Shown: positions 514-58,629, counted from the whole stretch's first letter. The stretch is 59,477 bases of DNA, filler included, from an uncultured virus (IMG/VR IMGVR_UViG_2049941000_000270) (3 parts of one record of this genome joined end to end with filler, not necessarily neighbours in it), one strand, 5' to 3'. Numbers and translations: made by a program. Notes: generated from the letters alone by a model not told the origin.

Positions 514-564
514 NNNNNNNNNNAGATTAACAAAGACATAAACATAGTAAAAGAAACTAAAGAT

Positions 565-1950
565 ATGAAACTAACACTTGAAAAATTGCACACTCAGTCT
601 GAAAAGACTATTGCAGCACTTGAAGAAATGAAGTCTGACAACAGTCTCGGTTTCTCTGCGTCAAGCGCAAAGGGAATCATTGAGAGTGCTATGGCACAGC
701 TTCAGATTTCAAATGATGACAAGACTGTTATGGAAGAGAAGATCAAGGCCGGTTACAAGATTGATGATACACTTGTAAATCCAGTTTTGAAATATACAGT
801 AACCGAAAGTCTTTACACAGCTCTTACACAGTATGATTGGATTCAGCCTGTTGCTGATTTCAGAAAGATGATTGAAGAATCATTTGTAGCAGACAAATGG
901 AGTTATGTTACAGCAAAGTTTGCTAACAGTCTTGCTGGACAGTCTTCAAATCCTTCATATGCACATCTTTATGAAGGTCTTGTTGATGCTCTCATTGATG
1001 AGGAGAATGTAAGACTTGCTCTTAAGGATGTTCTTCTTGAGAACTCATGGAACAAAGATGCAAAGGCAATCCTTTCATCAATCGTTGCAGAGGAAAAGGC
1101 AGAACAGGGTGAAATCAACACCAGTATCTATGAAAACTCAAACTGCTCTGTAAGAAAGACTATTTCTCCTCTTATTATAGATGAGAATAAGAAAGTCTTC
1201 TTCCTCAATGGTAAGAACTACATCTTCGATGGTCAAACTCTTGAAGAGGCAACTGTTACTGACAGAAAGTACAACAATGTACTTGAAGGTCTTTCAATCC
1301 TGAAGTATGAGGCAGACAAGGACAGACTTGTTTATTATGGCAAGAACAATATGGTTCTCGAATACAACTGCCAGACTGATGAGATTTCTCTCACAGGTAT
1401 TGAGGGTGTAAATGATATGTCAATCATTGACCTCAATGAGACATTGAAGAGATGCGGTATCTTTGACAGAGAGACTATAGGTAACTGTGAGAAACTTGTC
1501 AAGTTCTTTGAATCAAAGGACATCCTTGTTGAACTTGATTCACCTATCACCACTGTTCAGAGTGATAAGTTTGCCGGTGTATTTGTAACTGTTATCAATG
1601 TACAGGAGGGTGTATATGTAAATAAGGTAAATGCTGCTCTTGGTATCAATGAAATGACTTATTACAAGACTGCAAAGGAGGCTTGTGATGCAATCAGAGA
1701 CTTTATGAAGTATGATGCAACTGCAATCCTTTCAGAGAAACTCCAGGCAGAAGGAATCCAGAATGCTGTCATTGAAGCAAAGAGAAATGAAATCAATGAA
1801 ACCCTTTCATTCCTTTCAGAGAAGAGAGCACAGCTTATTGCCGGTCTCCAGGAAACCAACAACAACCAGCAGGTAAAGGAAGCACTTGAACTTGTTGAGG
1901 GTGAAATCAGAAAGTTTGAGAAGGAACTTCAGGAAACATACGAAGAGTAA
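565..1950 (+). CDS. Phage hypothetical protein with C-terminal coiled coil, probably late/virion
   Basis: 461-aa ungapped ORF; preceded by CATAAACA (537-544), a one-mismatch variant of the late motif. Confidence 0.7.
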   Translation: MKLTLEKLHTQSEKTIAALEEMKSDNSLGFSASSAKGIIESAMAQLQISNDDKTVMEEKIKAGYKIDDTLVNPVLKYTVTESLYTALTQYDWIQPVADFRKMIEESFVADKWSYVTAKFANSLAGQSSNPSYAHLYEGLVDALIDEENVRLALKDVLLENSWNKDAKAILSSIVAEEKAEQGEINTSIYENSNCSVRKTISPLIIDENKKVFFLNGKNYIFDGQTLEEATVTDRKYNNVLEGLSILKYEADKDRLVYYGKNNMVLEYNCQTDEISLTGIEGVNDMSIIDLNETLKRCGIFDRETIGNCEKLVKFFESKDILVELDSPITTVQSDKFAGVFVTVINVQEGVYVNKVNAALGINEMTYYKTAKEACDAIRDFMKYDATAILSEKLQAEGIQNAVIEAKRNEINETLSFLSEKRAQLIAGLQETNNNQQVKEALELVEGEIRKFEKELQETYEE

Positions 1951-1956
1951 TTGGTT

Positions 1957-2201
1957 ATGGAAAGGGTCAAGAGTTTCAATGAGTTCATCAATGAAACCTA
2001 CCTTGAAAAACCTGCTGATGCAGACCTTCTGAAACACAACAAGAAAAAGATGCAGAAGAATGGTTATGCTGAAGTGACAGTGATTGAAACTGTAGATGGA
2101 TTAAAGAAAGGTGACAAGGTTTTGGTTTCAGCTACCGAATTCGGTCAGTTAGGAGAAGAGTCATTTGTTACCTGTTACAAGGATGATGAAGAATACTTCA
2201 T
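1957..2201 (+). CDS. Small protein with capsid-targeting-like N-terminus (truncated by gap)
   Basis: Starts MERVKSFNEFINE; runs into N gap at 2202. Confidence 0.6.
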
Positions 2202-2245
2202 NNNNNNNNNNAGAAAAAGAACCTACAGGCAAATCCATAATATGA

Positions 2246-2277
2246 AAAATGTGGGAAACACCCACATTTTTCTTTTT
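2246..2277 (+). terminator. Intrinsic terminator
   Basis: AAAAATGTGGG-AAACA-CCCACATTTTT hairpin followed by T-rich tract. Confidence 0.75.
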
Positions 2278-2287
2278 GTTATATTTA
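2275..2287 (+). promoter_or_regulatory. Putative middle promoter TTTGTTATATTTA
   Basis: Motif recurs upstream of several non-structural genes (15871, 36528, 42644, 50503, 51124, 55577). Confidence 0.6.
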
Positions 2288-2315
2288 TTATATACAATAT
2301 ATCCATTATATTGAA

Positions 2316-2987
2316 ATGGCCAAAAAGAAAAACTATTTAAGTAATGTAGAATTAAGGGATGAAATTCTTAAATGTATAACAGATGGATATGAGAAGGCCA
2401 TATCATATGGATTTGATCCGACACTTCCACCTTATGGGTCAGACAGTTCAGAATCTGAACTGGATATACCTGTTGATGACAAGACAATAAAAATCGGTTA
2501 TCTTTTTGAAAGTGAAGATGAAGAGGTGATAGAGAAGTATAAACTTGCTATCAGTAATGGTTATATGCCTGAAAGGTCATACTGGATAAGGGAGGTAAAG
2601 GAATATGACAAGGCAGAATCTGAAGGTGAGGTTAAATCTGATGATAATCTCAAGTATCAAATGGCAAAACCTGTAGTCAGTGACAAACTTGCATATATGT
2701 TCCAACTCATTGTAGAGAATATTGCAAAGAGTTTCTACTGGGCAAATCCTGATGATGGTGAGGATTGTAAGGCCAATGCAATCCTGGATCTGTGTTCCAA
2801 TTTCTGGAAGTATGAACCTGTTGATGTGAATGGAAGACCATATAGTGCCTTTGCATTTTGCTCACAGATTGCATATTTCGGTATTGCCGGAGCCCACAGA
2901 ATACTTCACCCGAAGAAGTACAATGGAACAATATCCATTTCCTGTTTGGATGAAAACGGAAAACCATTTGAATTATACAATCTCTAA
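2316..2987 (+). CDS. T4 gp55-like late-transcription sigma factor
   Basis: NYLSNVELRDEI start; LAYMFQLIVENIAKSF...DCKANAILDLCSNFWKYEP...SAFAFCSQIAYFG pattern parallels gp55 region 2. Confidence 0.75.
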   Translation: MAKKKNYLSNVELRDEILKCITDGYEKAISYGFDPTLPPYGSDSSESELDIPVDDKTIKIGYLFESEDEEVIEKYKLAISNGYMPERSYWIREVKEYDKAESEGEVKSDDNLKYQMAKPVVSDKLAYMFQLIVENIAKSFYWANPDDGEDCKANAILDLCSNFWKYEPVDVNGRPYSAFAFCSQIAYFGIAGAHRILHPKKYNGTISISCLDENGKPFELYNL

Positions 2988-2992
2988 TCTAC

Positions 2993-3022
2993 AAAGGAGT
3001 GACCGAAAGTCACTCCTTTTTT
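2993..3022 (+). terminator. Intrinsic terminator
   Basis: AAAGGAGTGAC-CGAAA-GTCACTCCTTTTTT. Confidence 0.85.
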
Positions 3023-3030
3023 CATAAATA
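3023..3030 (+). promoter_or_regulatory. Putative late promoter CATAAATA
   Basis: One mismatch from the T4 late consensus TATAAATA; 23 nt upstream of the ATG at 3054. Confidence 0.7.
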
Positions 3031-3053
3031 CCTTATAATAGTATATATACCTT

Positions 3054-4340
3054 ATGACAGATAATTTATTTCAGAATGACCATATAACTGGTAACTCATT
3101 AATTGGATTTGAGTTCAAAGGTCAGTTCAAGGATGATGAGAATGTACTTCTCACCAAATTGAAAGATATACTCAACAGGGAAGTATCATTTTCAAACATC
3201 AAATATAAACTCCTTGAACCAACAGACCACCAGGCAGTAATGTCACTTGACGGTAGATATTGTGAAGTAAAGACACCTCAATACAGTTACTTTGAGGCAC
3301 TCTTCATTCTTCCCAAGATTCTTGAACTTCTCAAGACTCTGAAGGATGACAAAGGTTCATATCTTTACTTCAGGATTGGATTCAACAAAGAGTTCTGTGA
3401 CATCACCAACATCAATGTGATGAAGTTCATACTTGAGTTCAAGGAAGATTATATCCTGAAACACATAACAGACCTTACTCTTGACGGTAGTTTTGAGAAA
3501 CTCACAGACATTAAACCCACAGACATTGAAGCATGTATTGATGACACAAAGAAGAGAATGGATGGTCTGAAGTACACTGATTATGAAGACATCTATGGTA
3601 TTGACTTCAGTACAATCAAACTGGGTTACATCACATTTACATATGCCAGGGAAATTAACTTCAGAAACAAATGGGAAGAACTTCTCAAATGTCTGAACCA
3701 CACAATCATCACACTCTACAACACAAGTTCATCTTATGACTTCTCTGATGATGAGAAGAATAAGATTGATGAGATTGAAAAGAAATATAAAGAGACATCC
3801 CAGGCATTTGGTTGTTATGAACTCTTCAAGGAAAAATACAAGGGTATCAAACTCACTAAAGACCTCAACAATGACAGTATGGATATTGATATTATCTTCC
3901 CTGCAATCAAGGATAAACTCTTTGACATTGTAGTAAGATGTGGTATCAAGGAAGCAGAAATCAATTATGATTCAGATATTTCCAAAATTCAAATCAAGAA
4001 TATTGAAACCAAGAAATGTTATCACCTCAATGGTGTTGACATAGTTGACAGTGAACTCACCAACTGTACATTGAGAGACTGTGACCTTTATGACACAAAG
4101 GTTGAAAAGTCATCAATTATCAAATGTAATCTCTTTGGATATGCTGACTGTAAAGACTGTAAAATTAAGGATACCTTTGTAAGCAGAAACATCAAACTGA
4201 AGGATTGCAGGGTTACCGGTGCCCTTGGTAAGATGGGTGGTATTATGAAAGGTGGATCCCTTAAAGACACAACAGTTATTACATCTATGGCAGATATTGC
4301 TGATGATGTTGATAAGAACAATGTAAATGAAATCCAGTAA
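3054..4340 (+). CDS. Amidoligase-like (degenerate) protein with C-terminal beta-helix-like repeats
   Basis: IGFEF, CEVKT, GIDFSTIKLGYITF motifs resemble phage putative amidoligases; Cys-rich short repeats at C-terminus. Confidence 0.5.
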   Translation: MTDNLFQNDHITGNSLIGFEFKGQFKDDENVLLTKLKDILNREVSFSNIKYKLLEPTDHQAVMSLDGRYCEVKTPQYSYFEALFILPKILELLKTLKDDKGSYLYFRIGFNKEFCDITNINVMKFILEFKEDYILKHITDLTLDGSFEKLTDIKPTDIEACIDDTKKRMDGLKYTDYEDIYGIDFSTIKLGYITFTYAREINFRNKWEELLKCLNHTIITLYNTSSSYDFSDDEKNKIDEIEKKYKETSQAFGCYELFKEKYKGIKLTKDLNNDSMDIDIIFPAIKDKLFDIVVRCGIKEAEINYDSDISKIQIKNIETKKCYHLNGVDIVDSELTNCTLRDCDLYDTKVEKSSIIKCNLFGYADCKDCKIKDTFVSRNIKLKDCRVTGALGKMGGIMKGGSLKDTTVITSMADIADDVDKNNVNEIQ

Positions 4341-4699
4341 TGTTAAAAGACATTTATGCAATTCCTGAAGAGGAGCCAAGATATAAGAATGATGTACTTG
4401 AAATCACCGGTGAATTGGATGAAATCATACAACAGGTTGATATGATCCTCTTCACCAATAAGGGTGATGTCTTGGGTATGCCTGATTTTGGATGTAACCT
4501 CAGTAGGTATTTGTTTGACACATCATATGATGAAAACCTCATCAAACAGATAATAATGTCACAAATAAGAAGTTTCATTTACCTTGACGGGTCATACACA
4601 GTGGATGTTGATGTGAGTTTCATCAAATGGGACTACAATGTGGCAATGGTGGTGGATTTGAATATAAACAATAAAAAGGTTGCCTCATACCTGGTTTAA
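4340..4699 (+). CDS. Baseplate wedge gp25-like protein
   Basis: ILFTNKGDVLGMPDFGCNLSRYLF is the GPW/gp25 signature; 119 aa. Confidence 0.85.
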   Translation: MLKDIYAIPEEEPRYKNDVLEITGELDEIIQQVDMILFTNKGDVLGMPDFGCNLSRYLFDTSYDENLIKQIIMSQIRSFIYLDGSYTVDVDVSFIKWDYNVAMVVDLNINNKKVASYLV

Positions 4700-4703
4700 A
4701 CAC

Positions 4704-4741
4704 AAGAGATGATGTTCTATCATCTCTTTTTTTCATAAATA
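4704..4741 (+). promoter_or_regulatory. Terminator hairpin fused to late promoter CATAAATA (4734-4741)
   Basis: AAGAGATGAT-GTTCT-ATCATCTCTTTTTTT immediately followed by CATAAATA. Confidence 0.7.
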
Positions 4742-4772
4742 CTTATATAATATACCATAGACATACATAGAT

Positions 4773-6179
4773 ATGTTTTTATCAAAAACTAGACTTAAAG
4801 CCAGTGAATTGATGGAACAGGCTGTAGTATTCCTTCATAAGAAATACAACCAGGCTGCACATGTGTTCACAGCAGCATCTCCATTCGGACAGTTACTGAC
4901 AGTCATTGCTAATATGGCTGAACTCATCTTCACATATATTGCTCATACAGCAGAGGAACTCAATATCAAGACTGCCCAGAATGTGGAGACAATATATGGT
5001 CTTGCACAGATGACCGGACATGATGCTTATAGGGGTGGAAGTGCATATGGTATGATGGCTCTCAAGATAAATACATCTTCAGATCTTATTGAGGGTAATT
5101 ATGTAACCATCAATAATTTTTCAAAGTTCACAATTGCTGAAACAGGATGTACCTACTTTATAAATCTTCCAAGTGACTACATCAAACTCAATGTGACTGC
5201 TGATGATTTTGTGAATGTCAATTTTATCCAGGGTACTCCTGAAACACAGACATTTACATCTGATGGTACACCTCTCCAATCATTCAATCCTATTATAAAG
5301 TCAATGACAGACAATGATAATGTTGCTGTCACTGTAAATGGTAAGGAATGGAAGAGAGTTGACAGTCTTTATGATATGCCTGCGGATGACGGTTATGAGA
5401 GTTCAGAATGTTTCATTGTGAAGTCTTCAGTGAATGTCGGTCTTTCAATCTTCTTCGGAAANNNNNNNNNNATATGATGACAATGTGATTTACCTTAAAA
5501 TCATACCTAATGTCAAAAAGAAACTATCAAACAGTCAGGACTTCTTTGAACTTCCTACAAAGGAATTCATATTGAGTGAGTATGAAAAGGCATCCATCAT
5601 CAATGCTCTTGACAATTCAGGAAGGATGCTTGTAAACAGTGAGGTTGAAATTGTGGATCCTACTGTAAAGAAATATGTGATCAATATCATTGTAAGATAC
5701 TTTGAAGACATTGATAAGACTCAGATAAGGGCAAGTATCAGGTCTCTTCTTAACAAATACTATCTCAACATCAACAGAAATGACATTGTTCCTCTTTCTG
5801 ACATCATATCTCTTGTGGAGGGTGTAGATGGTGTTGACACCTGTGATGTGTTCTTTGTAAATGAGGAAAATGAAAGGGCAATCCTGAATGGTTACTATTA
5901 TACCAATGAGATGTCCTGGAATGGTCTTGAATATACAGAGAATCAAAAGAAAGTATATGTGAACTATGATGAAGACCCAAGAATAGGTTTTGATGATTTC
6001 GGTAACCTGAAAGTAAATGAATATGAGGTCTTCATTCCAAAAGGTGGATGGAAGGATAGAGACGGAAACTATTATACAGAAACACCGGAAGATGGTAAAC
6101 TCGGTCCTCTCAACATATTCTTCATAGATAAGGTTGACAGTTCATCATACAACCTTGGTATGCAGAGAAAACTCAATAC
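4773..6179 (+). CDS. Baseplate wedge gp6-like protein (N- and C-terminal fragments separated by gap)
   Basis: ELNIKTAQNVETIYGLAQMTGH, QG...QTFTSDGTPLQSF, LSIFFG and EVEIVDP...LSDIISLVEGVDGVD motifs; follows gp25. Confidence 0.7.
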
Positions 6180-6856
6180 NNNNNNNNNNTTGAAACCATT
6201 GTACCCCCTACACTGGGTAGTAACTTTGAAGACCCTGAATTTACAAAGATGGTTGCACCAAAGGCAAGTAAGTCATTTGTTCTGGCAACCCCGGAAAACT
6301 ATGTAAGTTACCTTTCAAAGTACAACCAGTATTCATTCATATATGCTTATAACACAAAGGATGATGCTAATGTNNNNNNNNNNGGGAGGGTTCTATTTAT
6401 CTTCCCAAGGTAAGTGTTGGTCTTTATGCAAACACAACAATCTATGTCCTTGAGAAAATAAGTAATTCAACTGGTTTCTCATATTCAAATGAAACATTTG
6501 ATGTTATAGAAGATATAGATACATCAAATTATAACAATGAGTATTTCTTTCCAAAAGGTACAGGTAAGATAAAATTCAAATGGGATCCCCTTAATACATT
6601 TGTTGATGAGTTCTTTATGTTTAACTTTGATGAGTCTTATACTCTCAAAGAAACATCATCACTTATATACACACCAAATGATGGTCCNNNNNNNNNNGAT
6701 GGAGGATAACACAAGTAAATATCTCCAGAAGAATCCCAATATGAGACAGTTCTTTCCATATTTGAATAAGATTATGTCTCACCTCATCAACAGTGTAAAG
6801 TATTTGAGAAACTTCAATAACTATGCTGTAAGAAAAGACTACAAAAGAATTGACTA

Positions 6857-9159
6857 ATGAATATAGACAATTTACATTTTTTTGATAGTAACGGTTACGA
6901 ACTTAATTTTGAACAGAATTCTGACGGANNNNNNNNNNNNNNNNNNNNNNNNNNNNNNNNNNNNNNNNNNNNNNNNNNNNNNNNNNNNNNNNNNNNNNNN
7001 NNNNNNNNNNNNNGGCAAATGAAAATGATGATGCCACAACATACAACAGGACTCTCATAATGTCTTATGAAGGTGAGACTGTTGCAAAGATAAAGTTCTA
7101 TGCCGAGACTGTTGAAGAAGATGAAAGACTGAAGATATGGAATGACAACCTTGGATATAACATCACTCCAGAAGATGAGATGTTGTTTTACAAGAGTGAC
7201 ATCAAAGAATACAAACCTGATTATATACTCCTTAATGAAAAGAGAAAGGAACTTATGATGGAAGGTAGTAATATCTATCCTTATATAGGATCATACAAGG
7301 CCATCATAAATGCCATCAAGTTCTTTGGTTACAGTAATCTTAACATAATTGAATACTGGAGAAATGTGAATCCGGATGATGAGAATTTTGGTAAGGTATA
7401 TCACAGTTCAAAATACAGTCTCACAAATAAGGAGACATTGAATATTGGTGCAAGAACAATTACTCTTCCAAATAAGGGTTATAAGAAAATCAATTCTCTT
7501 GCCCTTGTCTATTCTATCAACAAACCTTTACAGGAAACAGATGAGATGGATCTTCCTCTTGTAAAGGAACAATTCACATACACCATTGAAGAGGCTCTCA
7601 TAAAACTCTTTGGATTAAGAAAGAAACTCAACAAGGAGTTTATGCCTGGTAGTAGCAGAATTGTTGATATTATTGGTGAGGCAAATTATTTTAGTCAGTA
7701 TGGTATTGTGAAGGTACATGACAAACAATGTACAATAAAAACTAAAAAAAGATATTCTGCTGATTTTGAAATTGTAAACAAATATGTACATATAACAGAT
7801 GATGAAAGTAGTGAATCAGAAAGTACTGAATGTTCAGCAAAAGTAATTTTGAAAAACACATCATTTGAACCTGTCACATTTGAAAATTGTGATTTGAAAT
7901 TCAATTGTATAAACAACCCATTGGGATTATTTAATAAAGAATCATCAGAGTTTAAGATNNNNNNNNNNNNNNNNNNNNNNNNNNNNNNNNNNNNNNNNNN
8001 NNNNNNNNNNNNNNNNNNNNNNNNNNNNNNNNNNNNNNNNNNNNNNNNNNNNNNNNNNNNNNNNNNNNNNNNNNNNNNNNNNNNNNNNNNNNNNNNNNNN
8101 NNNNNNNNNNNNNNNNNNNNNNNNNNNNNNNNNNNNNNNNNNNNNNNNNNNNNNNNNNNNNNNNNNNNNNNNNNNNNNNNNNNNNNNNNNNNNNNNNNNN
8201 NNNNNNNNNNNNNNNNNNNNNNNNNNNNNNNNNNNNNNNNNNNNNNNNNNNNNNNNNNNNNNNNNNNNNNNNNNNNNNNNNNNNNNNNNNNNNNNNNNNN
8301 NNNNNNNNNNNNNNNNNNNNNNNNNNNNNNNNNNNNNNNNNNNNNNNNNNNNNNNNNNNNNNNNNNNNNNNNNNNNNNNNNNNNNNNNNNNGATGTAACT
8401 TTAATGCTTAATTATAGTAATCTTCCAGAGCCAATAAAAAAGACAAAGAAAAAGTGTGTAAAGGTTGAACCTTATAATATTAATCTCCTTGGTTTCTATT
8501 ATGATGCAAGAAATCTTCCTGAATCATTACAATATGATATGGATGACAATTTAAAAAATTTTATTCAAGAACATATAGAACATCTGACAAATGAGGCAGT
8601 TGATGAAAGACAGGTATCAGATAATGGAGAATTTTCAATGCCAAAGGGTTCCAATCCTGGTCCATATTTCAATGACAACATTGATAACAACTGGATTATT
8701 GGAGATAATTTAACAGAAGATATTGTAGATCTTATACCTCATTATTATTACACAAGATTTATCAAGAGTGGTGTTGATGTAAAACCATTCACATGGTTTT
8801 TACTCACATATGACTATGGAAAAATAGTAGGTGTTAAGGATGAGGAAGATCGGAAGAGCGGTTCAGCAGGAATGCCGAGACCGATATCNNNNNNNNNNGC
8901 TGAAGAAGGTGATACAAAAACCTGGACTTGGACAGGTCAATATTTGACATTCTTACTTAAAAAGGAAGGAAACTATACAATTAAACTAACTCTTACAGAT
9001 AAACATAATAATAAGTATGAAGTATCCAGAAATATCATTGTTGTAAGTAAATCAGCAAATTATAAGTTATATCAGACATTCAAAAAAGAATATGATTATA
9101 TGATTCAGCAGGATGAATTAAATGCTCTTAATGAATATTATTTGATTGATAGAGAATAA
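6857..9159 (+). CDS. Large virion/baseplate structural protein (gapped), C-terminal PKD-like segment
   Basis: IYPYIGSYKAIINAIKFFGY resembles baseplate wedge/tail I-like motif; KEGNYTIKLTLTDKHNNKY is PKD-like; several N gaps. Confidence 0.5.
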
Positions 9160-9214: not shown

Positions 9215-10180
9215 ATGGAAGAAAAAGAAAAAGACATTGTTGAACCAGTAGTCGAATCTACATCAGAAGACAATGCTACACCTGTAGTTGAATCAACACA
9301 GGAGAAAGATCAAGATGAAAATGAAACAGTTGATAATAACACTGAAACAGATCCAGAACCTGTTACAACAGATGAACCAACTCCAGAACCAGAACCAGTA
9401 GCAGAACCTACTGAACCAGAATCCGGTGTTGAACCATCAGAATCAGTGACAGAACCAGTGGGAACCGAACCAATAGTTTCAGAACCTGTTGTTACTGAAC
9501 CTATTACAACTGACCCTGTTGTTACTGATGCACCAGTAGAAGACCCAACACTTGCAACAACTGATGAGGTTATTCCTGCACCTGTTGATATTCCTGCTGA
9601 ACAGACAGTAACTGATGACCCTGTAACAATAATTCCAGCAGAACCTGCACCTGTTGGTGTACCAGATGAAACCATTGGTGCAGATGCAGAAGGTGCTGAT
9701 GGTTCATGCTGTGGTTGTGATTCAGATGCTTGTGTATGTTCACCAGAATCACCTGTAACTGTTGCTCATCTGTTTGGTACACTTCAGGAGTGTGTAACTA
9801 TTATCTGGAGATTTCATCTTAAGACAAGAAAACATCATGTTCATGTTGACCTTGCTGATTTCTATGAGAGCGCTCTTGATAAGATTGACAACATCATTGA
9901 ACAATACCAGGGTATCTGTGGTATAGTTGAGGATCCTTTCGTTAACTGTATTGTAGGTGATGGTAAGGATGAGGTTTCCTATCTCCAGGAACTTAAAGCA
10001 TTTGTTGAAAATAATAAGTGTATTATTGGTGGTAGTTGTGAAATCAATTCTGCAATAGATGATTTCCTTGGTCTTATTGATACAACCCTTTATAAACTCA
10101 CATCATTTACAGAGAGTGCAGTAAAGTCATTTGAAGAGTTTATATATGAGGACTATAATGAACAGTCAGAAGAAGAGTAA
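9215..10180 (+). CDS. Acidic Pro/Glu/Thr-rich protein with C-terminal Dps/ferritin-like (DUF5856-like) domain
   Basis: Low-complexity EPV/TEP N-terminus; FHLKT...HVDLADFYESALDKIDNIIEQYQG...INSAIDDFLGLIDTTLYKL matches phage Dps-like bundle. Confidence 0.7.
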   Translation: MEEKEKDIVEPVVESTSEDNATPVVESTQEKDQDENETVDNNTETDPEPVTTDEPTPEPEPVAEPTEPESGVEPSESVTEPVGTEPIVSEPVVTEPITTDPVVTDAPVEDPTLATTDEVIPAPVDIPAEQTVTDDPVTIIPAEPAPVGVPDETIGADAEGADGSCCGCDSDACVCSPESPVTVAHLFGTLQECVTIIWRFHLKTRKHHVHVDLADFYESALDKIDNIIEQYQGICGIVEDPFVNCIVGDGKDEVSYLQELKAFVENNKCIIGGSCEINSAIDDFLGLIDTTLYKLTSFTESAVKSFEEFIYEDYNEQSEEE

Positions 10181-10197
10181 ATCAAATACCTGATAAA

Positions 10198-10231
10198 CAA
10201 AAAGAGAGAACTTGATGTTCTCTCTTTTTTT
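10198..10231. terminator. Bidirectional intrinsic terminator
   Basis: AAAAAGAGAGAAC-TTGAT-GTTCTCTCTTTTTT between convergent genes. Confidence 0.8.
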
Positions 10232-10947
10232 ATACCTTTGCTGGTTCCAGGATCACATTCACCTTGTTTGCTTTCCAATTGGTTGTCACCACTTTTTGGT
10301 CAACCTCATTAGAACTGAAATCAAATTCAAGACCACTTACACCTGTAAATAGAAGGTCATCAAATGTAATCCTGTATAATGAACGGTTATAACAGTCCAG
10401 GATTTCCATACCTGGTGTTGCCGGAATAAATTTCAGATCTGGTTCTGCTGTATAGTAATACATAAAGAGGTCTGTCAACATTGACCATATTATATATGCC
10501 GAATCCAACTGAAAGGTAATTGTCATAGATTTCTTCCATAAGAAGTCTGGAAAGAAGTCAGACCTCTTTATCCTTCCATATGGAGTTCCTCTATCCACCT
10601 GTTCAATTGGTTCATATTCAGCAGGGTTCACTTCNNNNNNNNNNTGAATCCAACTGAAAGGTAATAGTCATAGATTTCTTCCATAAGAAGTCAGGAAAGA
10701 AGTCAGACCTCTTTATCCTTCCATATGGGGTTCCTCTATCCACCTGTTCAATTGGTTCATATTCAGCAGGGTTCACTTCAAGTTCAACAGACTTGATACT
10801 GTAGTTAAGAAAATCAACAACAGTGGTACACATATTTCCCGGTATTCTGTTAAGGATTGGAGAATACTTATCTTCTATCTCCTTTGGAACAAACACCTTT
10901 GGAAAATCAAACTTGAAGTTATTATTTTTTCCGCTTAAAAAAGCCAT
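10230..10947 (-). CDS. Tail tube/baseplate-tube-like protein (two overlapping variant fragments)
   Basis: NNNFKFDFP...YSIKSVEL...MTITFQLDSAYIIW...FTGVSGLEFD resembles T4 gp19/gp3-type folds; CATAAATA motif at 10972-10979 on minus strand. Confidence 0.5.
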
Positions 10948-11033
10948 ACAATATTCAGATGATATATATTGTATTTATGAAAAAAGTGGTCATTCCAAAA
11001 GGAACAACCACTTATTCTTTTATAAATCAGTAT

Positions 11034-12311
11034 TTAAGAAATCTTCAACCTGACTGTCTTTTTGACCACATCCACATTTTCAACCGGAAGTTCTACTTCC
11101 TGACCTACTGTGAGTTTGTCAATCTCAACAACCTTTGATGAGAGGAAGAATGTGATTCCATTGAACTCCTCAGAGAGAATAACCACACCATTGTCAAAGA
11201 TGTTCTTTACAACACCCTTCAACTTATAATCAGGTGTCTTCTCAATGGTCTCCTTCAACTTATCCCAACCCTCTGACTTACTTACAGTCTGGGTAATAAT
11301 AACCTTCTCATCACTGATACTATCAATGTAGAAGTCAATAGAATCACCAACCTTAAGTTGACCACTCTTAAACTTAGCTTCTGTAACCTCATTCATTTCA
11401 GATACAGAAAGTAAAGTGGCAACACACTTGTCAATAAGGATGAATACACCAAAGTGCTTAATAGATGAAACAACACCGGTAACAACACTACCCTTGTCAA
11501 GGTTGATGAGTCTATCAAGAACACCAGGTTTGAGAGTATTGAGGTATTCCTTGTGTGATACAATGATACTGTCCTTAATCTGATTGACAGGCATTACAAA
11601 CAGTTCTTTATTAAGGAGATCATTGAAGTTGTTGAGAGGAACAATATCTGACTCGGTACCAGGCATAAAACACCTGACACCCTTGATGTCAACAATAAAT
11701 CCATTGAATACATTTGCATTATTGTACACAATCTCCTTCACAAGACCNNNNNNNNNNTGGAACAATATCTGACTCAGTACCAGGCATAAAACACCTGACA
11801 CCCTTGATGTCAACAATGAATCCATTGAATACATTTGCATTATTGTACACAATCTCCTTCACAAGACCCAGATATGCTGATGTAGGAGTCTGGATTTCAC
11901 TTATAAGTTCCTGTTTCAGTCTCTCTACCTGTGCTGCTTTTGAAGAGGCATCAGCATTGAGATGACCTCTGTTCTTTGTTACAACAACATCAATCTTGTC
12001 ACCTACATTAACCTTCTCATTGGCATTTATCTCAACAAATACTGAATGCTTCTGCGAAAGAGCAATATCAGCCGTTGATTTTTCCTCATCATATCTGGAA
12101 ATCTCACCCCTTCTGACATCTTTAAACTTTCCAAGTCTCTCATATTCAACAATAGCATCCAGAACATCACCAGAGCATGACTGTGAATATTTCTTCATTG
12201 CCTCAACTACATAAGGCTTGTTACAAAGGATTCTTTCACCTTTGTGTACAGGAATTTCAACAACTTGGGAATTCAGGGGATCTGATTCAGAAAAGATTTC
12301 AATTCTTTGAG
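11034..12311 (-). CDS. rpsA: Ribosomal protein S1 (bS1)-like multi-S1-domain protein (gapped, internal duplicate)
   Basis: GFIVDIKGVRCFMPGTESDIVP...IIVSHKEYL and KGSVVTGVVSSIKHFGVFILI...LLSVSEM align with bS1 domains 2 and 3; about four OB domains. Confidence 0.75.
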
Positions 12312-51163: not shown

Positions 51164-51417
51164 TTATAATTCAATTTCTTTTTTGGTTTTCAAATCAATT
51201 ATCCGTTGGTTGGAACTTCCTCTGAAAGCAAGTGATGTGTCTCTCTTTGTACAATCAAACATTCCATCTACAAGGATATTTGCCAGATCCAGGATCTCCT
51301 TGAAATGTTCCTGACAATACTCGAATGTGTAACCTGTATAAATCCACACATCCTTTGTATCACCAAACCTTTCCCTGAAATGTTGCAGGAGTTCAAGTAT
51401 GCCATCAGGACTGTCAA
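51164..51417 (-). CDS. nrdG: Anaerobic RNR activase, C-terminal fragment
   Basis: KDVWIYTGYTFE, LVDGMF, LAFRGSSNQRII. Confidence 0.9.
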
Positions 51418-51454
51418 NNNNNNNNNNNNNNNNNNNNNNNNNNNNNNNNNNNNN

Positions 51455-51833
51455 AGTCTGGGAAAAGGTTACTCCTTTTGAGAAGATTGATATTGAATCA
51501 CAACTCACCTGTTACAGTTCTGCCGGTTGTATTACTTATGTTGAACTTCCTTCAACTGTACTACATAACACAGAAGCACTTGAGACTATTGTCAATTATG
51601 CAATGGATCATGACATTCCTTACTTTGCAGTCAATACACCTAATGACTTGTGTAATGATTGTGGTTACCAGGGAGAACTTGGTGAGACATGTCCACAGTG
51701 TGGAGGTAAGAACATCAGCAGACTCCGCCGCGTGACCGGATACCTTACTGGCGATTTTCGTACTGCTTTCAATCTAGGTAAGCAGGATGAGACAGAAGAT
51801 AGAGTTAAACACCAAAAAGAAATTGTGATTTAA
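51455..51833 (+). CDS. nrdD: Anaerobic RNR, C-terminal fragment (inverted in scaffold)
   Basis: CNDCGY...CPQCG zinc site and RRVTGYL glycyl radical motif. Confidence 0.95.
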
Positions 51834-51835
51834 TT

Positions 51836-52013
51836 ATGAAGTATGAGAGTATTACAACATCAGATGTGAATAATGGTTTAGGTTGTAGGGTGACTTTGTG
51901 GGTTTCTGGTTGTACTCATCATTGTAAGGGTTGTCACAATAAGAAGACCTGGAAGTTTACATCAGGAAGAGATTACACCCAGGAGGTTGAGAAGGTACTC
52001 TTTGATGAGATTG
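51836..52013 (+). CDS. nrdG: Anaerobic RNR activase, N-terminal fragment
   Basis: NGLGCRVTLWVSGCTHHCKGCHN radical SAM CxxxCxxC. Confidence 0.9.
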
Positions 52014-52024
52014 ANNNNNNNNNN

Positions 52025-54171
52025 GAGTACAGTTGAAGGAAGTTCCACATAGGTAATACAACCTGCTGAACTGTAACAGGTGAGTTGTGATTCAATGTCA
52101 ATCTTCTCAAATGGAGTAACCTTTTCCCAGACAGGAACATGCATTGAGTTAGTGAAGTACTCTCTGTCAGATACATTCTCAATCACACCATACTTGTCAC
52201 GGAATTTCTTGAGAGCTGTATAACAGAGATTCTCTGCCGGTGTGTAATAGACACCAAAGTTCAGACTGTACTCCTTCTTATATTCAGCACATCTGTCCTT
52301 GAAGAGTTGTTCAATCCTCTTTGCAAGTGCCATTCCCTCATCTGTGAGATGGTTCTTACCTATAAGAAGTTGAAGTGTTTCAGCCAGACCAAGTTGACCA
52401 ATAACTATTGTACCATGTTTCAGGGCTGACCTGATACCTTCTTCTGGGACATAACCTGCCATTGTATGGTTGGTGTACATAAAGTCTGCTGACTTTGGTG
52501 ACTGTGAGCAGATCCACTCGAATCTCTCAATAAGCATATCCTTTGCCTCACCAATCTTCTTGTCAAGGAGTTTCATAAATTTCTCGACATCTCTGTCCGC
52601 TTCCATTGCAAGTGTAGGCATAATGATTGTAACAGGACATATATTTCCTCTACCATCCTTCAACTGACCAAGACCATTCACATCCCAACCATTTGCTGTT
52701 CTACAACCCATTGTACTGAAATAAGTTCTTGGATCATTGATGTCATAACCTGCATTACCTGACCAGTCAACATTTGCATAGTTAGGATAAAGTCTCTTTG
52801 CTGTTGACTTCAATGCCAACTGATAAAGGTCATAGTTAGGAGTGCCTGGTTTGTCATTGACACCCTTCATATACTGGAATATACCACAAGGGAAGATAGG
52901 TGTCTTATGGAACTTACCCAGACCGGCAATAGATACCTCAAGGATTTTCTGTGTAACCATCCTTCCTTCCGGTGATGTACATGTACCATAGTTGATTGAT
53001 GTAAAAGGAAGCTGGTTACCTGACCTGGATTNNNNNNNNNNATAAAGTCTCTTTGCTGTTGACTTGAGCGCCAACTGATAGAGGTCATAGTTAGGAGTAC
53101 CTGGTTTGTCATTGACACCCTTCATATACTGGAAGATACCACAAGGGAAGATAGGTGTCTTATGGAACTTACCAAGACCGGCAATTGATACCTCAAGGAT
53201 TTTCTGTGTAACCATCCTTCCTTCTGGTGAAGTACATGTACCATAGTTGATTGATGTNNNNNNNNNNACATTCCCTCAACTGCCTGGTAAGTCTCTGCCT
53301 CTGTCTGACCATAGGCATAGTTATAAACCTTTTCATATTTATTCTTGAATTCCTCATTGTCAAAACAGAGTTCACCAACCTCATCTTCAATCTGTTTTGT
53401 TATCTTCTCAGCATCATCCTTTGTCATACCCTGTACAAATCTGTACCAACCCTTCACATGTTTCCTGAAAGATTTCTTTACATAAGGTACCATTGTCCAG
53501 TCAAGGTGTGTGGCACTTACACCTCCGAACTGCTGGAGTGACTGTAACTGGAAGATAACTGCAACCAGCTGCATTGCTGTGTTGATTGAGTTTGCAGGAC
53601 GGACATCAGTCTGTCTTGTATTGAATCCCTTTGCAAGAAGATCATCAAAAGGTATTGAGAGACAGTTGTGCATGCCTGCTGCATATGAATCTAAATCATG
53701 TATATATATTTCATTATTAAGATGGTTGTTCTTTGACTTCTTACTCATACAATACTTAAGAGCATAATCCTTTGTCACTACTCTGGTGACCTCGCCCATT
53801 CTTCCACCGAATGAATATTCATCTACATTGGCATTCTGGTTTTCTACATTCTTTGCGAGGAGTTTCTTTTCCACATCCTTTGTGAGCTGATTCTTTTCCT
53901 CTCTCATTGCTTTGTGTTCTGCCCTGTAAATGATGAAGTTCTTAGCAACACATGGGTAATACTTCATAAGGTACTTCTCAATCTTGTCCTGAATGTCCTC
54001 AACATTGATTGATTCTTCCCCATACTTGTCTACCCATTCCTTGATGAAGTCATATACCTCAACAGGAGTCTCCATCTCCTTTGAGGCAAATGCCTTGTCA
54101 AGTACATTGTAGATCTTCTCAATACGGAAGTGGGCACTGGTGCCATCTCTTTTTATTACCGTTTTGATCAT
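52025..54171 (-). CDS. nrdD: Class III anaerobic ribonucleoside-triphosphate reductase (gapped, with variant duplicates)
   Basis: ATP-cone VIKRDG, IYIHDLD, HNC, QFGG, TMGCR, GRGN, TPAENL, YFTNS. Confidence 0.95.
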
Positions 54172-54196
54172 ACAAATTTATTTTGATTATATTATA

Positions 54197-54862
54197 TTAT
54201 TCACCACAGTTGAGCTGATTGACTATGGTGTTTGTGTTCTCATCAACAGTGAAGTAGTTGTGATAAATGGCAACAGTACCATTATAAACATTCTCCTTCT
54301 TATCCAGGGTTCTTACATTTTCAACAGTCTTGAATACATAATTGTCTGAAGATGTACATACCTTACTGAGTTTAATATTATAGAGGTCCGCCTCATATCC
54401 TTCCCTGGTGCAGACCTCTCTCTCATCCCAGATACACTCAAACTCCTCTCCTGACACTTCACACTTCTTTATGATAGTACCCTTCTTTGTTCCTGTGTAT
54501 TCTGTAAATTGTTTGTCCTCCTCATCAATATCAGATGGGAGGGCAACATTATTCTTAATTGTCACAAGTTTATATCCCTCATATAAATCTCCGGCATACA
54601 CATAACCCTCATCTGTGAGAAACATATGATTGGGAGTTGCCTTTAATATTGTTCCATCCTCAAATGTTATTTCCATAATTGTCATATCATATCCTGACAA
54701 CCTGGGATGAAACATCTTTGACATCTTTATGTTTCCTTCATCATCAAGGCAATACACATCAACATCATCTCCGACATCCGCCAGTTCCTTGAAGGACTTG
54801 AGTCCTTCAACAGTCCACAACTTGGTATCTCCTGTTACACAAGGATTTAACATTTTCATCAT
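54197..54862 (-). CDS. Free-standing intein (Hint domain) with RNR-type extein stubs NP and CGE
   Basis: MMKMLNP|CVTGDT (block A), ATPNH (block B), VYNGTVAIYHNY (block F), QLN|CGE-stop (block G); no gaps. Confidence 0.9.
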   Translation of the reverse strand: MMKMLNPCVTGDTKLWTVEGLKSFKELADVGDDVDVYCLDDEGNIKMSKMFHPRLSGYDMTIMEITFEDGTILKATPNHMFLTDEGYVYAGDLYEGYKLVTIKNNVALPSDIDEEDKQFTEYTGTKKGTIIKKCEVSGEEFECIWDEREVCTREGYEADLYNIKLSKVCTSSDNYVFKTVENVRTLDKKENVYNGTVAIYHNYFTVDENTNTIVNQLNCGE

Positions 54863-54884
54863 TAAATTTTGATTAAAATTAAAC

Positions 54885-55415
54885 TTAATTTTTCATTTTT
54901 GGCGGTAAGTTATTTATGTATTCATCCACCAATTTTTCACTCTCCAACCTTAAGTTCCAGATACTGAAATCCTTAAAGTCTTTTGCATCATTTTTGAGGC
55001 GGACTTCATTGTCATCACCCACCTTATTTGTGTATCTACTGTTCAGTCTCTGTCTCCTTACTTCCTCTGGAATGTCAAGATAAATGATTGTAAATCTGTC
55101 TCTTAACTCTGGAAACTGTGTGAACACATCCCTCACATTGGCTGGTGAGAGGATTGCCACATCAGAGTTAATGAATTCATCATAAGACACACCATACCAA
55201 CCGATCCTGTAGAAGTTTACAGATATGAAACTACCTTTATTTTCCATATCCTTAAATACAGGTTCAGAGACAAAATGATACTCATCTCCAGTCTCATTTT
55301 CTCTCTTCTCCCTGGTGGTGTATTGCTTCATTGGATGATAGCCTTTTTCCTCCATTTTCTTGATGAGCCAGTCTTTTCCGGAAGCACCTGGACCCACAAT
55401 GATATATTTACTCAT
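54885..55415 (-). CDS. gmk: Guanylate kinase-like protein
   Basis: IIVGPGASGKD, YTTREKRENE, YHFVS, WYG. Confidence 0.85.
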   Translation of the reverse strand: MSKYIIVGPGASGKDWLIKKMEEKGYHPMKQYTTREKRENETGDEYHFVSEPVFKDMENKGSFISVNFYRIGWYGVSYDEFINSDVAILSPANVRDVFTQFPELRDRFTIIYLDIPEEVRRQRLNSRYTNKVGDDNEVRLKNDAKDFKDFSIWNLRLESEKLVDEYINNLPPKMKN

Positions 55416-55572
55416 TCAAATACTTTTTAAAGTTCTCAATGAGGTTACCTTTGAGATTGGTGTTCCATTCATCCTGTGACATTGGTATCTGTTTGACACT
55501 GTCATCATCAAGATGGATCTCAGCAACCTCCTTACCTACATTATATGTTACTCTATAAATCTCTCCTTTCAT
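55408..55572 (-). CDS. Small hypothetical protein
   Basis: MKGEIYRVTY...; ATG 4 nt after TTTGTTATCTTTC, preceded by terminator hairpin ~55586-55612. Confidence 0.55.
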   Translation of the reverse strand: MKGEIYRVTYNVGKEVAEIHLDDDSVKQIPMSQDEWNTNLKGNLIENFKKYLNE

Positions 55573-55747
55573 ATAAGAAAGATAACAAAAAAGGAGATGA
55601 TTTCTCATCTCCANNNNNNNNNNAAGGAGTTTCTTTTCCACATCCTTTGTGAGTTGATTCTTTTCCTCTCTCATTGCTTTGTGTTCCGCCCTGTAAATGA
55701 TGAAGTTCTTAGCAACACATGGGTAATACTTCATAAGNNNNNNNNNN

Positions 55748-56327
55748 AACATGAGAACATCAGTATCTTTTCCAAGAATGGTAAGAAGACTGTCTATAAC
55801 CCACAGATGATAAAGGGTGAACCATACAAGAGGACACACAAAATATCAGAGGTTGACATCAATAATCATAACATAGGTTTTAACAGAAGGGAGGTTGTCA
55901 GTGTCAATGAAGGTTTCAGATACCCTGACAGTGTGTTGGAGTTCCAACAGAAGTGGAGAAGACAGGACCAGGTTCATCCCACACAGAAACCGGTTGAACT
56001 GATTGAGTGGTTGATAAGGACTTACTCTAATGAAGGTGANNNNNNNNNNGATGGTGGTGCAATAGTCCTGTTTGGTACAGAACCATTCAGTAGTATGTTG
56101 AGGATGAGTAATCTGAAATGGTATAAGTATGATCTGATATGGAAGAAATCAAAGAGTGGTTCTGCTTTCTGTGCCAAGTATAGACCGATATATCAGATAT
56201 TTCCATTATCTNNNNNNNNNNTATTGACTGTATCATCTGTGATCTTCCTTATGGATCCAGCGGTTGCTCCTGGGATATACTCATACCCTTTGACAAACTA
56301 TGGGAACAATATGAGAGAATCATCAAG
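55748..56327. CDS. Scattered N4/N6 DNA methyltransferase fragments
   Basis: HENISIF...YNPQM...[34 protein letters not shown]...KYDLIWKK; minus-strand [10 protein letters not shown] duplicate. Confidence 0.75.
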
Positions 56328-58629
56328 NNNNNNNNNNTACATCTTCCAAGATATGAACATATTGCTGCTTCAGATGAGAATAACCCCAGAGGTATAGTAG
56401 ACAAAGATGATATAGACCTTATAAAAGGGGATAATAATATTTTCTTTAAATTGGATGTTAGTGGTGTTTATGGTGTTAGTAGTCCATCTGAATACAATAA
56501 CAATAATATGGTATTGGATGTTAGTAATCTTAATTCATTTAATAATTATATATATTATACAGGTAAAATTACAGGAGGGTTCACTAAAGANNNNNNNNNN
56601 NNNNNNNNNNNNNNNNNNNNNNNNNNNNNNNNNNNNNNNNNNNNNNNNNNNNNNNNNNNNNNNNNNNNNNNNNNNNNNNNNNNNNNNNNNNNNNNNNNNN
56701 NNNNNNNNNNNNNNNNNNNNNNNNNNNNNNNNNNNNNNNNNNNNNNNNNNNNNNNNNNNNNNNNNNNNNNNNNNNNNNNNNNNNNNNNNNNNNNNNNNNN
56801 NNNNNNNNNNNNNNNNNNNNNNNNNNNNNNNNNAATATTTCAAGTAATGCAATATATGTCAAAGCAGAGGGTGGTGGTTCAAAATCATCCACAAGTTATA
56901 TTTCATCAGTCACATATGCATCAAATGATGTTAGTTTACAAATATATCTAGTAGATAGTACACTTCTATCTCTTAGTGTAATATCTATGAGTGTTGATGA
57001 ATATTTTGATATGTGTATTCTTGCAAAATATACTTCAGGCANNNNNNNNNNNNNNNNNNNNNNNNNNNNNNNNNNNNNNNNNNNNNNNNNNNNNNNNNNN
57101 NNNNNNNNNNNNNNNNNNNNNNNNNNNNNNNNNNNNNNNNNNNNNNNNNNNNNNNNNNNNNNNNNNNNNNNNNNNNNNNNNNNNNNNNNNNNNNNNNNNN
57201 NNNNNNNNNNNNNNNNNNNNNNNNNNNNNNNNNNNNNNNNNNNNNNNNNNNNNNNNNNNNNNNNNNNNNNNNNNNNNNNNNNNNNNNNNNNNNNNNNNNN
57301 NNNNNNNNNNNNNNNNNNNNNNNNNNNNNNNNNNNNNNNNNNNNNNNNNNNNNNNNNNNNNNNNNNNNNNNNNNNNNNNNNNNNNNNNNNNNNNNNNNNN
57401 NNNNNNNNNNNNNNNNNNNNNNNNNNNNNNNNNNNNNNNNNNNNNNNNNNNNNNNNNNNNNNNNNNNNNNNNNNNNNNNNNNNNNNNNNNNNNNNNNNNN
57501 NNNNNNNNNNNNNNNNNNNNNNNNNNNNNNNNNNNNNNNNNNNNNNNNNNNNNNNNNNNNNNNNNNNNNNNNNNNNNNNNNNNNNNNNNNNNNNNNNNNN
57601 NNNNNNNNNNNNNNTCCTGGATCTCCTTCGCCTTATCCTGGTGAGCATAAAGTTCCTTTGAGACATTCCTGTATTCCTCAATGATACCTATGATGTCCTT
57701 TATTTCCTTTTCTGTGAAATTAATCTTCATCTTTTACCAGTTTTGCAAATATGAAACCTTCCTTGATACAGTCATACTTGACTCCACCAATGTTCAATGG
57801 AGTGGTTCTGCCCAGTGGTTTGATGATTATATCACCCTCTTTGAGTATTGAACCCTCATAGGGTTTTCAACNNNNNNNNNNNNNNNNNNNNNNNNNNNNN
57901 NNNNNNNNNNNNNNNNNNNNNNNNNNNNNNNNNNNNNNNNNNNNNNNNNNNNNNNNNNNNNNNNNNNNNNNNNNNNNNNNNNNNNNNNNNNNNNNNNNNN
58001 NNNNNNNNNNNNNNNNNNNNNNNNNNNNNNNNNNNNNNNNNNNNNNNNNNNNNNNNNNNNNNNNNNNNNNNNNNNNNNNNNNNNNNNNNNNNNNNNNNNN
58101 NNNNNNNNNNNNNNNNNNNNNNNNNNNNNNNNNNNNNNNNNNNNNNNNNNNNNNNNNNNNNNNNNNNNNNNNNNNNNNNNNNNNNNNNNNNNNNNNNNNN
58201 NNNNNNNNNNNNNNNNNNNNNNNNNNNNNNNNNNNNNNNNNNNNNNNNNNNNNNNNNNNNNNNNNNNNNNNNNNNNNNNNNNNNNNNNNNNNNNNNNNNN
58301 NNNNNNNNNNNNNNNNNNNNNNNNNNNNNNNNNNNNNNNNNNNNNNNNNNNNNNNNNNNNNNNNNNNNNNNNNNNNNNNNNNNNNNNNNNNNNNNNNNNN
58401 NNNNNNNNNNNNNNNNNNNNNNNNNNNNNNNNNNNNNNNNNNNNNNNNNNNNNNNNNNNNNNNNNNNNNNNNNNNNNNNNNNNNNNNNNNNNNNNNNNNN
58501 NNNNNNNNNNNNNNNNNNNNNNNNNNNNNNNNNNNNNNNNNNNNNNNNNNNNNNNNNNNNNNNNNNNNNNNNNNNNNNNNNNNNNNNNNNNNNNNNNNNN
58601 NNNNNNNNNNNNNNNNNNNNNNNNNTGAA

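Follow-up and report, generated by a model that had tools for sequence, protein, structure and literature searches.

Within a 59,477-nt stretch of DNA (filler included; hereafter the window) from an uncultured virus (IMG/VR IMGVR_UViG_2049941000_000270), in which three parts of one record of this genome are joined end to end, we identified a 221-aa open reading frame (ORF) that is an intein with almost no host protein around it. This ORF, called here the Hint ORF, is located at 54197..54862 on the minus strand, runs from ATG to TAA, reads MMKMLNP|C...NQLN|CGE* and lies between a guanylate-kinase-like gene (gmk) and nrdD, the gene of a class III ribonucleotide reductase (RNR). The best explanation, to which we give a probability of roughly 0.7, is that the ORF is an exapted ("domesticated") extein-less intein of the reductase NrdJ, which is free-standing and vertically inherited under purifying selection, and not a relic.

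A stand-alone intein gene and its family

A word-indexed search returned 222 homologues of near-equal length, some of them on contigs of 357-412 kb. The 120 listed homologues have 212-243 aa and share 67-99% identity with the query at 96-100% query cover. All 120 keep [TS]xNH and VYNGTV, and 114 of them have both the early NP|C and the NCGE end. An exhaustive search added the stand-alone proteins P0135 (48% identity) and P0137 (44%) with the same ends, and stand-alone forms down to 43-48% identity keep the same ends and neighbours.

The precursor consists of a 7-aa N stub ending in NP, a 211-aa intein and a 3-aa C stub (CGE), with the pattern MMKMLNP|CVTGDT...TPNH...VYNGTVAIYHNYF...VNQLN|CGE. 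An earlier reading made from the sequence only (the sequence-only reading) had placed the N stub, the intein (54841-54209) and the C stub correctly, and the ATG-TAA ORF with its two flanking genes was confirmed. The parts are:

54197..54862, minus strand: stand-alone intein ORF, the precursor with N stub, intein, C stub and TAA (PF14890, TIGR01445)
54842..54862, minus strand: N-extein stub MMKMLNP (NP|C within the first 12 residues of 116 of the 120 listed homologues)
54209..54841, minus strand: intein proper, from Cys1 to the terminal Asn, 211 aa (motifs, AlphaFold2 model, Foldseek)
54410..54490, minus strand: best-conserved portion of the insert, TKKGT..K.CE..G..FE..W.EREVC (invariant columns; remnant of an FCS-type zinc ribbon)
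54200..54208, minus strand: C-extein stub Cys-Gly-Glu (TGTGGTGAA), with TAA directly after it (NCGE end in 116 of the 120 listed homologues)
54197-54199, minus strand: stop codon TAA of the Hint ORF

The relatives begin with M(K/N)KLNP, and the second ATG of the window ORF (54859) is an alternative start that may be the true one. The K-L-N-P codons of the N stub vary synonymously among loci.

The protein passed the curated cut-offs of two intein models, Pfam Intein_splicing (PF14890; 43.1 bits against a cut-off of 35.8, E 4.9e-11) and NCBIfam intein_Nterm (TIGR01445; 42.4 bits against 24.5). Its motifs are C8, T76-P-N-H79 (block B), VYNGTV..YHNYF, N218 preceded by Leu, and C219, so Cys1, block B, block F and the terminal Asn with Leu at the penultimate position are all present as the sequence-only reading had described. 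Across 60 aligned relatives, C8, block B, N218 and C219 show little or no variation. The protein therefore has the residues of a class 1 intein (Cys1, TxxH, terminal Asn and +1 nucleophile), but not the context, an in-frame position within a host protein that splicing restores, because its flanks are only 7 and 3 residues long. The penultimate His is absent, and block F has an Asn in place of the Asp usual for inteins; both are family traits common to the embedded members. PT-HINT (PF07591) stayed below its cut-off (26.0 against 27.7 bits) and Hedgehog-Hint likewise. No nuclease family (HNH or LAGLIDADG) was found in the ORF by Pfam, so it does not qualify as a homing-endonuclease intein.

By sequence, a profile of 60 relatives matched solved DnaE inteins and the NrdJ-1 intein. 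An AlphaFold2 model of the intein had a mean pLDDT of 82.9 and a pTM of 0.81, and its top Foldseek matches were the DnaE, DnaB, RecA and NrdJ-1 mini-inteins with target TM of 0.76-0.85. The ORF product is thus predicted to fold as a mini-intein.

Descent from reductase inteins

The insertion point points to the origin of the intein. NP|CGE is the thiyl-radical active-site loop of class I/II RNRs, and all of the longer homologues (14/14) were reductase large subunits (PF02867) with an intein at NP|C. Of 163 further proteins that we inspected (P0121-P0283), BLAST located both junctions in 69, of which 3 are stand-alone; the remaining 94 gave partial matches only and were left out of the junction counts. 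Among the embedded relatives, CGE follows the intein in 66/66 and NP precedes it in 65/66, the other one having NA, and the host proteins contain the RNR barrel domain. The closest host, P0121, scored as an adenosylcobalamin-dependent NrdJ (433 bits against a cut-off of 399.95). The nearest embedded relatives (P0121-P0124) share 54-57% identity with the window protein over the N-terminal splicing region.

A maximum likelihood tree was built from 89 inteins using the first 100 and last 42 residues; a quick tree was also made. All 24 stand-alone forms made up one clade on a long stem (UFBoot 100 / SH-aLRT 95, the bootstrap being not fully settled), and its sister was a group of five HNH-bearing inteins of 474-480 aa including that of NrdJ P0121 (99/93). 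In viral contigs, relatives of P0121 are 34-55% identical, and the context of one of them (L039) is thymidine kinase, exonuclease and helicase genes, not gmk and nrdD. These comparisons support descent of the window ORF from an NP|CGE intein of a class I/II RNR, with an NrdJ as the closest host, which agrees with the origin that had been proposed from the sequence alone.

No host enzyme was found. The class I/II barrel-domain model found nothing in 5/5 related viral records (completeness 56, 62, 67, 94 and 94%); it was positive in 12 of 14 control genomes. Reductase queries matched the window only via the intein parts, so a search for nrdA or nrdJ elsewhere found none in the window or in these records. 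The related phages carry class III NrdD and its activase NrdG. The sequence-only reading had also held that a host nrdA/nrdJ was deleted and the intein survived; the reductase intein origin and the lack of a class I/II RNR in relatives bear this out, and a deletion of the ancestral nrdJ at the gmk-nrdD site itself is what we infer.

The insert between the splicing halves

About 70 aa separate the two splicing halves, with only an FCS-like remnant. At the same position the embedded relatives carry CxxC...RE(V/I)xFCSxxC. This FCS-type pattern was found in 17 of the 69 inteins with placed junctions, namely 15 embedded ones (both HNH-bearing and mini) and the stand-alone P0135 and P0137. In the window copy the second Cys of the zinc ribbon is Ser. 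Four ligands persist in the lineage of the L026-L028 type. The zf-FCS match in P0124 was sub-threshold (18 against 22.4 bits), and so were zf-FLZ matches. The linker had been called a decayed Cys-containing remnant without endonuclease; the lack of an endonuclease holds (Pfam), but embedded relatives have such a linker too, and it is an FCS-type zinc-ribbon insert typical of the family. Though dispensable for splicing, it is the most invariant stretch of the stand-alone proteins. These proteins are strongly acidic (net charge -14 to -18, pI 4.5-4.9), and a DNA-binding role for the insert was dropped for this reason.

Purifying selection and constant neighbours

For comparison among loci we used 22 loci, the window plus 21 distinct complete coding sequences from viral and metagenome contigs. 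This set excludes repeats of contigs already included (L003, L004, L008, L022), L002 as an apparent duplicate, L019 and L024 because contig ends truncate their ORFs, and L029, which is a fragment of 31 residues. The median ratio of nonsynonymous to synonymous substitution (dN/dS) of the Hint ORF was 0.128 (interquartile range 0.108-0.183; pairwise Nei-Gojobori method, 116 of 231 pairs with 0.05<dS<2), from pairs that are non-independent and in many cases near saturation. Median dS was about 1.2-1.3 in the per-region analysis, and whole-ORF dS from the window reached about 3. At the same loci dN/dS was 0.120 for gmk and 0.101 for nrdD (first 300 codons). Within the ORF it was 0.17 in the N-terminal splicing region, 0.14 in the insert and 0.15 in the C-terminal splicing region. 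These coding-sequence comparisons support purifying selection on the Hint ORF that appears about as strong as on gmk and nrdD. The suggestion of selection instead of decay, for which dN/dS had been named as the check, is supported by a value of about 0.13.

The pairwise dN of the Hint ORF tracked that of gmk (Pearson 0.95, Spearman 0.85, over 190 non-independent pairs; means 0.269 and 0.277). Because the stand-alone forms are monophyletic, show this dN/dS and diverge together with gmk, a single origin followed by long vertical inheritance is indicated, which argues against re-seeding from embedded inteins.

The gene order is also conserved. An upstream ORF (at least 100 aa, ending no more than 120 nt away) was present in 20/22 loci, and outside the window 19/19 were gmk-like with 46-95% identity to the window's protein. 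A downstream ORF starting within 120 nt was present in 21/22 loci and was nrdD-like at 40-95% identity in 18. In L017 and L025 it was a second nrdD type with 23-25% identity, and that of L025 was confirmed as NRDD by Pfam. The free-standing ORF between gmk and nrdD, which relatives were to be searched for, is therefore recurrent in independent assemblies, including viral contigs of up to 412 kb. Nothing among the deposited phages of INPHARED matched the ORF over its full length; the matches were partial Hint matches to terminase inteins and to a 735-kb metagenomic phage. The 770-aa protein encoded nearby had no match there at all, so at that sensitivity INPHARED contains no relative of the clade.

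The neighbouring features in the window are:

54863..54884, minus strand: spacer from the stop of the gmk-like gene to the start of the Hint ORF, containing the motif TAAGTTTAATTTTAAT common to related loci
54885..55415, minus strand: guanylate-kinase-like gene, the constant upstream neighbour (PF00625, 32.5 bits against a cut-off of 25.2; phrog_1815)
54172..54196, minus strand: 25-nt spacer from the Hint ORF to nrdD, beginning with TATAAT
53268..54171, minus strand: 5' part of nrdD (class III reductase with ATP-cone and NRDD by Pfam), ended by the N run 53258-53267

The complete nrdD has 733 aa and is followed by nrdG in the relatives L001 and L007.

Lineages without the +1 cysteine or without the gene

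One sub-lineage (L007, L023, L020, L021 and probably P0138) has a 14-aa N stub (..SISILDAC|C), and its Cys+1 codon has become TGA (TAA in L021) through a 1-nt insertion, with TGGTGAA kept after it. The intein of L023 ends in Asp and not in Asn. Pairs within this sub-lineage gave dN/dS of 0.063 and 0.142. A sub-lineage that lacks the +1 nucleophile cannot splice and yet is constrained, so splicing or the ligated peptide is not the common selected function. The retention of the junctions, which had been described as precise, therefore stands for both junctions in the 114 listed homologues mentioned above, but not for this sub-lineage with its stop in place of Cys+1 and its longer N stub. Two ways of rescuing the residue were considered and rejected: recoding of TGA, since L021 has TAA and the long neighbouring ORFs read normally under code 11, and a +1 shift, which would yield Asp or Asn, neither of them a nucleophile.

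In L066, which was recognised via a 52%-identical neighbouring 794-aa protein, gmk is followed by nrdD after 63 nt without a Hint ORF. L066 adjoins the Hint-bearing L025 in the gmk tree (SH-aLRT 81, root unsure), so secondary loss is the simpler reading.

The sequence GGTGAAT(A/G)A recurs at three kinds of place. In most lineages it forms the G-E-stop codons, in the sub-lineage lacking Cys+1 it follows the stop, and in L066 it comes directly after the stop of gmk. Sites of the form GGTGAA(T/C)(A/G)A were located at 5670-5680 in L007, in L020, L021 and L023, and at 8085-8099 (minus strand) in L066. The two branches of the sub-lineage lacking Cys+1 have diverged to saturation at synonymous sites, and still the GGTGAA is kept there. 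This sequence may act in cis ahead of nrdD, or be the footprint of a deletion or insertion.

Proposed mechanism and points against it

We propose that in the ancestor of a clade of giant phages of about 350-410 kb, known from ruminant gut metagenomes, the exteins of the intein were lost in a single event, probably together with the HNH nuclease. From then on the gene has been inherited vertically between the guanylate-kinase-like gene and nrdD-nrdG. The precursor would fold as a mini-intein and process itself. In the window lineage, splicing would shed the 6-7-aa leader and CGE, and in the sub-lineage without Cys+1 only the N-terminal reaction would take place; both routes would lead to the same strongly acidic mature protein, which begins at Cys1, ends with the terminal Asn and has a mass of about 24 kDa. 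The function under selection would then reside in this mature body or in its Cys1 thioester/N-terminal-Cys chemistry, and not in the ligated peptide of 9-10 aa. The mature protein possibly serves the gmk/nrdDG nucleotide module with which the Hint gene is inherited.

A stronger proposal is that a prokaryote virus here keeps a canonical intein without exteins for that intein's own sake, which would be the first case shown. The intein would be a self-processing Hint protein that acts, via its Cys1 chemistry or its acidic body, on another molecule in the nucleotide-metabolism module of the phage (guanylate kinase and class III reductase). We advance it tentatively, at somewhat below an even chance.

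Several points weigh against the exapted intein. Splicing competence is read from motifs common to the embedded relatives, and no function is predicted for the Hint protein. No relative with the ancestral order gmk, nrdJ (with intein), nrdD was found. The pairs behind the dN/dS values have the non-independence and saturation given above. The Hint gene is dispensable in at least one lineage, that of L066, and the loss of Cys+1 could also mark the onset of decay. A DNA element may account for part of the exact conservation of CGE-stop.

Alternative explanations

One alternative differs from the exapted intein at the origin step only. An HNH-bearing NrdJ intein might have been copied into the gmk-nrdD spacer at a look-alike target (..GGTGAA), which would have made the tiny "exteins" directly, with exaptation following later. 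Such ectopic homing would explain the flush junctions without two precise deletions, and GGTGAAT(A/G)A is indeed present in the L066 spacer and after the stop in the sub-lineage lacking Cys+1. Mis-homing was also proposed as the origin of the yeast genes HO and WHO (PMC7282813). However, the similarity extends over only 6-7 nt, there is no match to the left half (AAYCCN) in L066, and the place of L066 beside L025 within the Hint-bearing set favours secondary loss (support 81, root unsure). We consider this origin unlikely.

The selected product might also be the ligated peptide M(K/N)KLNP-CGE, mimicking the reductase loop, with the intein serving for nothing but its production. K-L-N-P and C-G-E stay unchanged while their codons vary synonymously, and 116/120 listed proteins have the exact CGE end. 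But efficient self-processing of an intein would by itself favour conserved flanks, so their conservation is expected anyway if such processing is required. The sub-lineage with a stop at +1 cannot ligate and is constrained nevertheless, other lineages would give different peptides (an N stub MKKNVNA, a tail CGESYIRK), and it is the insert, unneeded for splicing, that is most invariant. A peptide generator is therefore quite improbable in our view.

We see still less chance that the ORF is a neutral relic, that is, that nrdJ was deleted around the intein and left a pseudogene which has not yet decayed. A precedent is Arth_1007, an inactive intein with 66 aa of exteins that was called a pseudogene (PMC3196547). 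The absence of the gene from one relative (L066), the loss of Cys+1 in one sub-lineage and a Hint protein to which no function is assigned would fit a relic too. Against neutral decay stand a dN/dS of about 0.13, equal to that of gmk and nrdD while synonymous sites are near saturation, catalytic motifs that are invariant in the 120 listed homologues, and stand-alone forms that at 43-48% identity still have the same ends and neighbours.

Selfish persistence is a little more doubtful again. In this case the copy would be kept intact not by selection in the phage but by embedded reductase inteins, of hosts or of co-infecting phages, that restore it time after time through gene conversion or homing. 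The sister inteins carry HNH nucleases, and phage genomes are mosaic, as seen in the adjacent nrdD that was swapped in L017, L025 and L066. On the other side, the stand-alone forms are monophyletic on a long stem and have diverged in step with the gmk beside them, Pfam finds no nuclease in the ORF, just 2-6 and 3 extein codons are homologous for recombination, and a class I/II reductase was not found in the 5 related records.

Integrity of the locus and other features of the region

That the ORF is an assembly artefact, a collapsed piece of a full nrdA/nrdJ, is suggested by the poor scaffold, with its 83 N runs (6810 N) and its repeated or inverted pieces of nrdD, but this is practically excluded because the ORF and both neighbour boundaries lie in one N-free block (53268-55613), the arrangement recurs on clean contigs, and contigs of other studies bridge both boundaries. 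The order gmk-like gene, Hint ORF, nrdD, nrdG is repeated on clean viral contigs of 155-412 kb, and the same arrangement occurs on many metagenome contigs. The boundary between nrdD and the ORF was bridged by X5 record 7 (53762-54393) and X8 record 21 (53581-54272), and that between the ORF and gmk by X5 record 9 (54804-55063) and X6 record 17 (54579-55061); these contigs come from three other DNA studies of bovine gut metagenomes. The question of contiguity raised by the sequence-only reading is thus answered by independent contigs spanning both boundaries.

The RNA-library run X15 gave one 181-nt contig within the ORF (54485-54665), the rest of the ORF being uncovered; it is only a weak hint of transcription, since such libraries can hold DNA and contigs cannot show transcription.

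Elsewhere the window is badly joined (51164-53267 and 55614-55747), with nrdD fragments duplicated on either side of 10-N gaps. The 3' end of nrdD and nrdG are on the opposite strand (51399-52036, plus strand), and a 38-residue nrdD piece lies between two N runs at 55624-55737, distant from the nrdD gene.

In the gmk-Hint spacer an AT-rich motif, T[AT][AG][GT]TTTAA[CT]TTTT, is kept in the window and 18 related loci; it may be a phage promoter or other signal. One further copy was found elsewhere in the window, no more than expected by chance. Promoter and terminator scans around the Hint ORF gave nothing above shuffles, and there was no terminator-like site in the nrdD spacer.

The second nrdD type (23-25% identity over the first 300 codons) was observed in L017, L025 (4699-5319) and L066 (5826-8036), where gmk stays in place, as does the Hint ORF in L017 and L025, and it seems that a recombination boundary lies in the Hint-nrdD spacer. 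In L027, the most divergent lineage, nrdD is in at least three ORF pieces (4710-5672, 6339-6731 and 6965-end, with gaps of 667 and 234 nt, in the region 4710-7245). This breakage may come from an unrecognised intron, another insertion or errors; no Rfam family matched when L026 and L027 were scanned for introns within the broken nrdD. L027 also has an IS605-type TnpB gene (OrfB_IS605, Cas12f1-like TNB, HTH_OrfB) at 753-1883, about 1.5 kb upstream of gmk.

In L001 nrdG is followed by three successive N6/N4 DNA methyltransferase genes (9666-11891), and pieces of the last of these can be seen in the window in the 55846-56400 region, lying between N gaps. Two other conserved neighbours in L001 are a 771-aa protein (2557-4872, minus strand) with an HExxH motif, whose C-terminal region is kept across the clade, and a 710-aa ATPase (396-2528, minus strand; phrog_1297). 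No relative of either was found in INPHARED.

Comparison with known intein systems

The usual view of inteins is that they are selfish and that essential proteins tolerate them only because they excise themselves cleanly. After the loss of the host protein nothing should preserve an intein, and the orphan that has been described, Arth_1007, is a dead pseudogene. Here the host enzyme is gone and yet the intein is kept, with motifs intact down to about 44% identity and a constraint like that on the neighbouring enzymes. With about 220 aa and easy expression, it is a natural test case of whether inteins can gain a function of their own in prokaryotic viruses and of the capabilities of a free Hint domain. 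In annotation, this extein-less class is concealed by automatic labels such as "intein/homing endonuclease". Full-text literature searches for inteins without exteins returned only the HO/WHO work and unrelated papers.

The window ORF is most easily compared with the RNR inteins at NP|CGE (HNH-bearing or mini), with which it shares the Hint family, the junction residues, the NQLN C-terminal motif, VYNGTV..YHNYF and the FCS-type insert. Unlike them, it has no host enzyme, has its own start and stop, lacks HNH and has zinc ligands that are partly replaced. The stand-alone forms are also more acidic (-14 to -18) than most embedded mini-inteins (-2.5 to -16).

Arth_1007 of Arthrobacter sp. FB24 is an intein of phage origin whose 52 + 14 aa of extein are unrelated to any host protein. 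According to the report on it (Tori and Perler 2011; PMC3196547), it is a single decayed copy, inactive, with catalytic residues missing. It resembles the window ORF in being a phage-origin intein almost without extein, but the window ORF keeps every motif, has more than 200 related sequences and is under purifying selection.

In the split inteins of fractured genes (Dassa et al. 2009; PMC2677866), the arrangement is likewise non-canonical, the inteins are those of reductase and replication genes, and the metagenomes are rich in phages. There, however, a host gene exists as two parts, each joined to one half of the intein; in the window no host gene is present and the intein is complete, its two halves contiguous in one ORF. 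Other non-canonical architectures are described for actinophage inteins in a 2025 preprint.

The bacterial intein-like (BIL) and PT-HINT domains are similar in using Hint for self-cleavage and not for restoring a host protein, and the sub-lineage without Cys+1 resembles them. They differ in being located in large secreted or toxin proteins that have something to release, whereas the window protein has 221 aa in all and nests among true reductase inteins in the tree, with PT-HINT below its cut-off.

The yeast HO and WHO genes are, like the window ORF, stand-alone intein-derived genes without exteins that are kept by selection. According to their description (PMC7282813), they keep the LAGLIDADG nuclease, have added a C-terminal zinc finger, have lost motif G and do not splice. 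The window ORF stands alone as they do but is not of that type, because LAGLIDADG is absent by Pfam and motif G is present; it has no nuclease, keeps motif G, the terminal Asn and mostly Cys+1, and belongs to phages and not to yeasts. If the stronger proposal above is true, the window ORF would be an independent parallel in bacterial viruses to Hedgehog and HO, and inteins would be open to exaptation after their host gene is gone.

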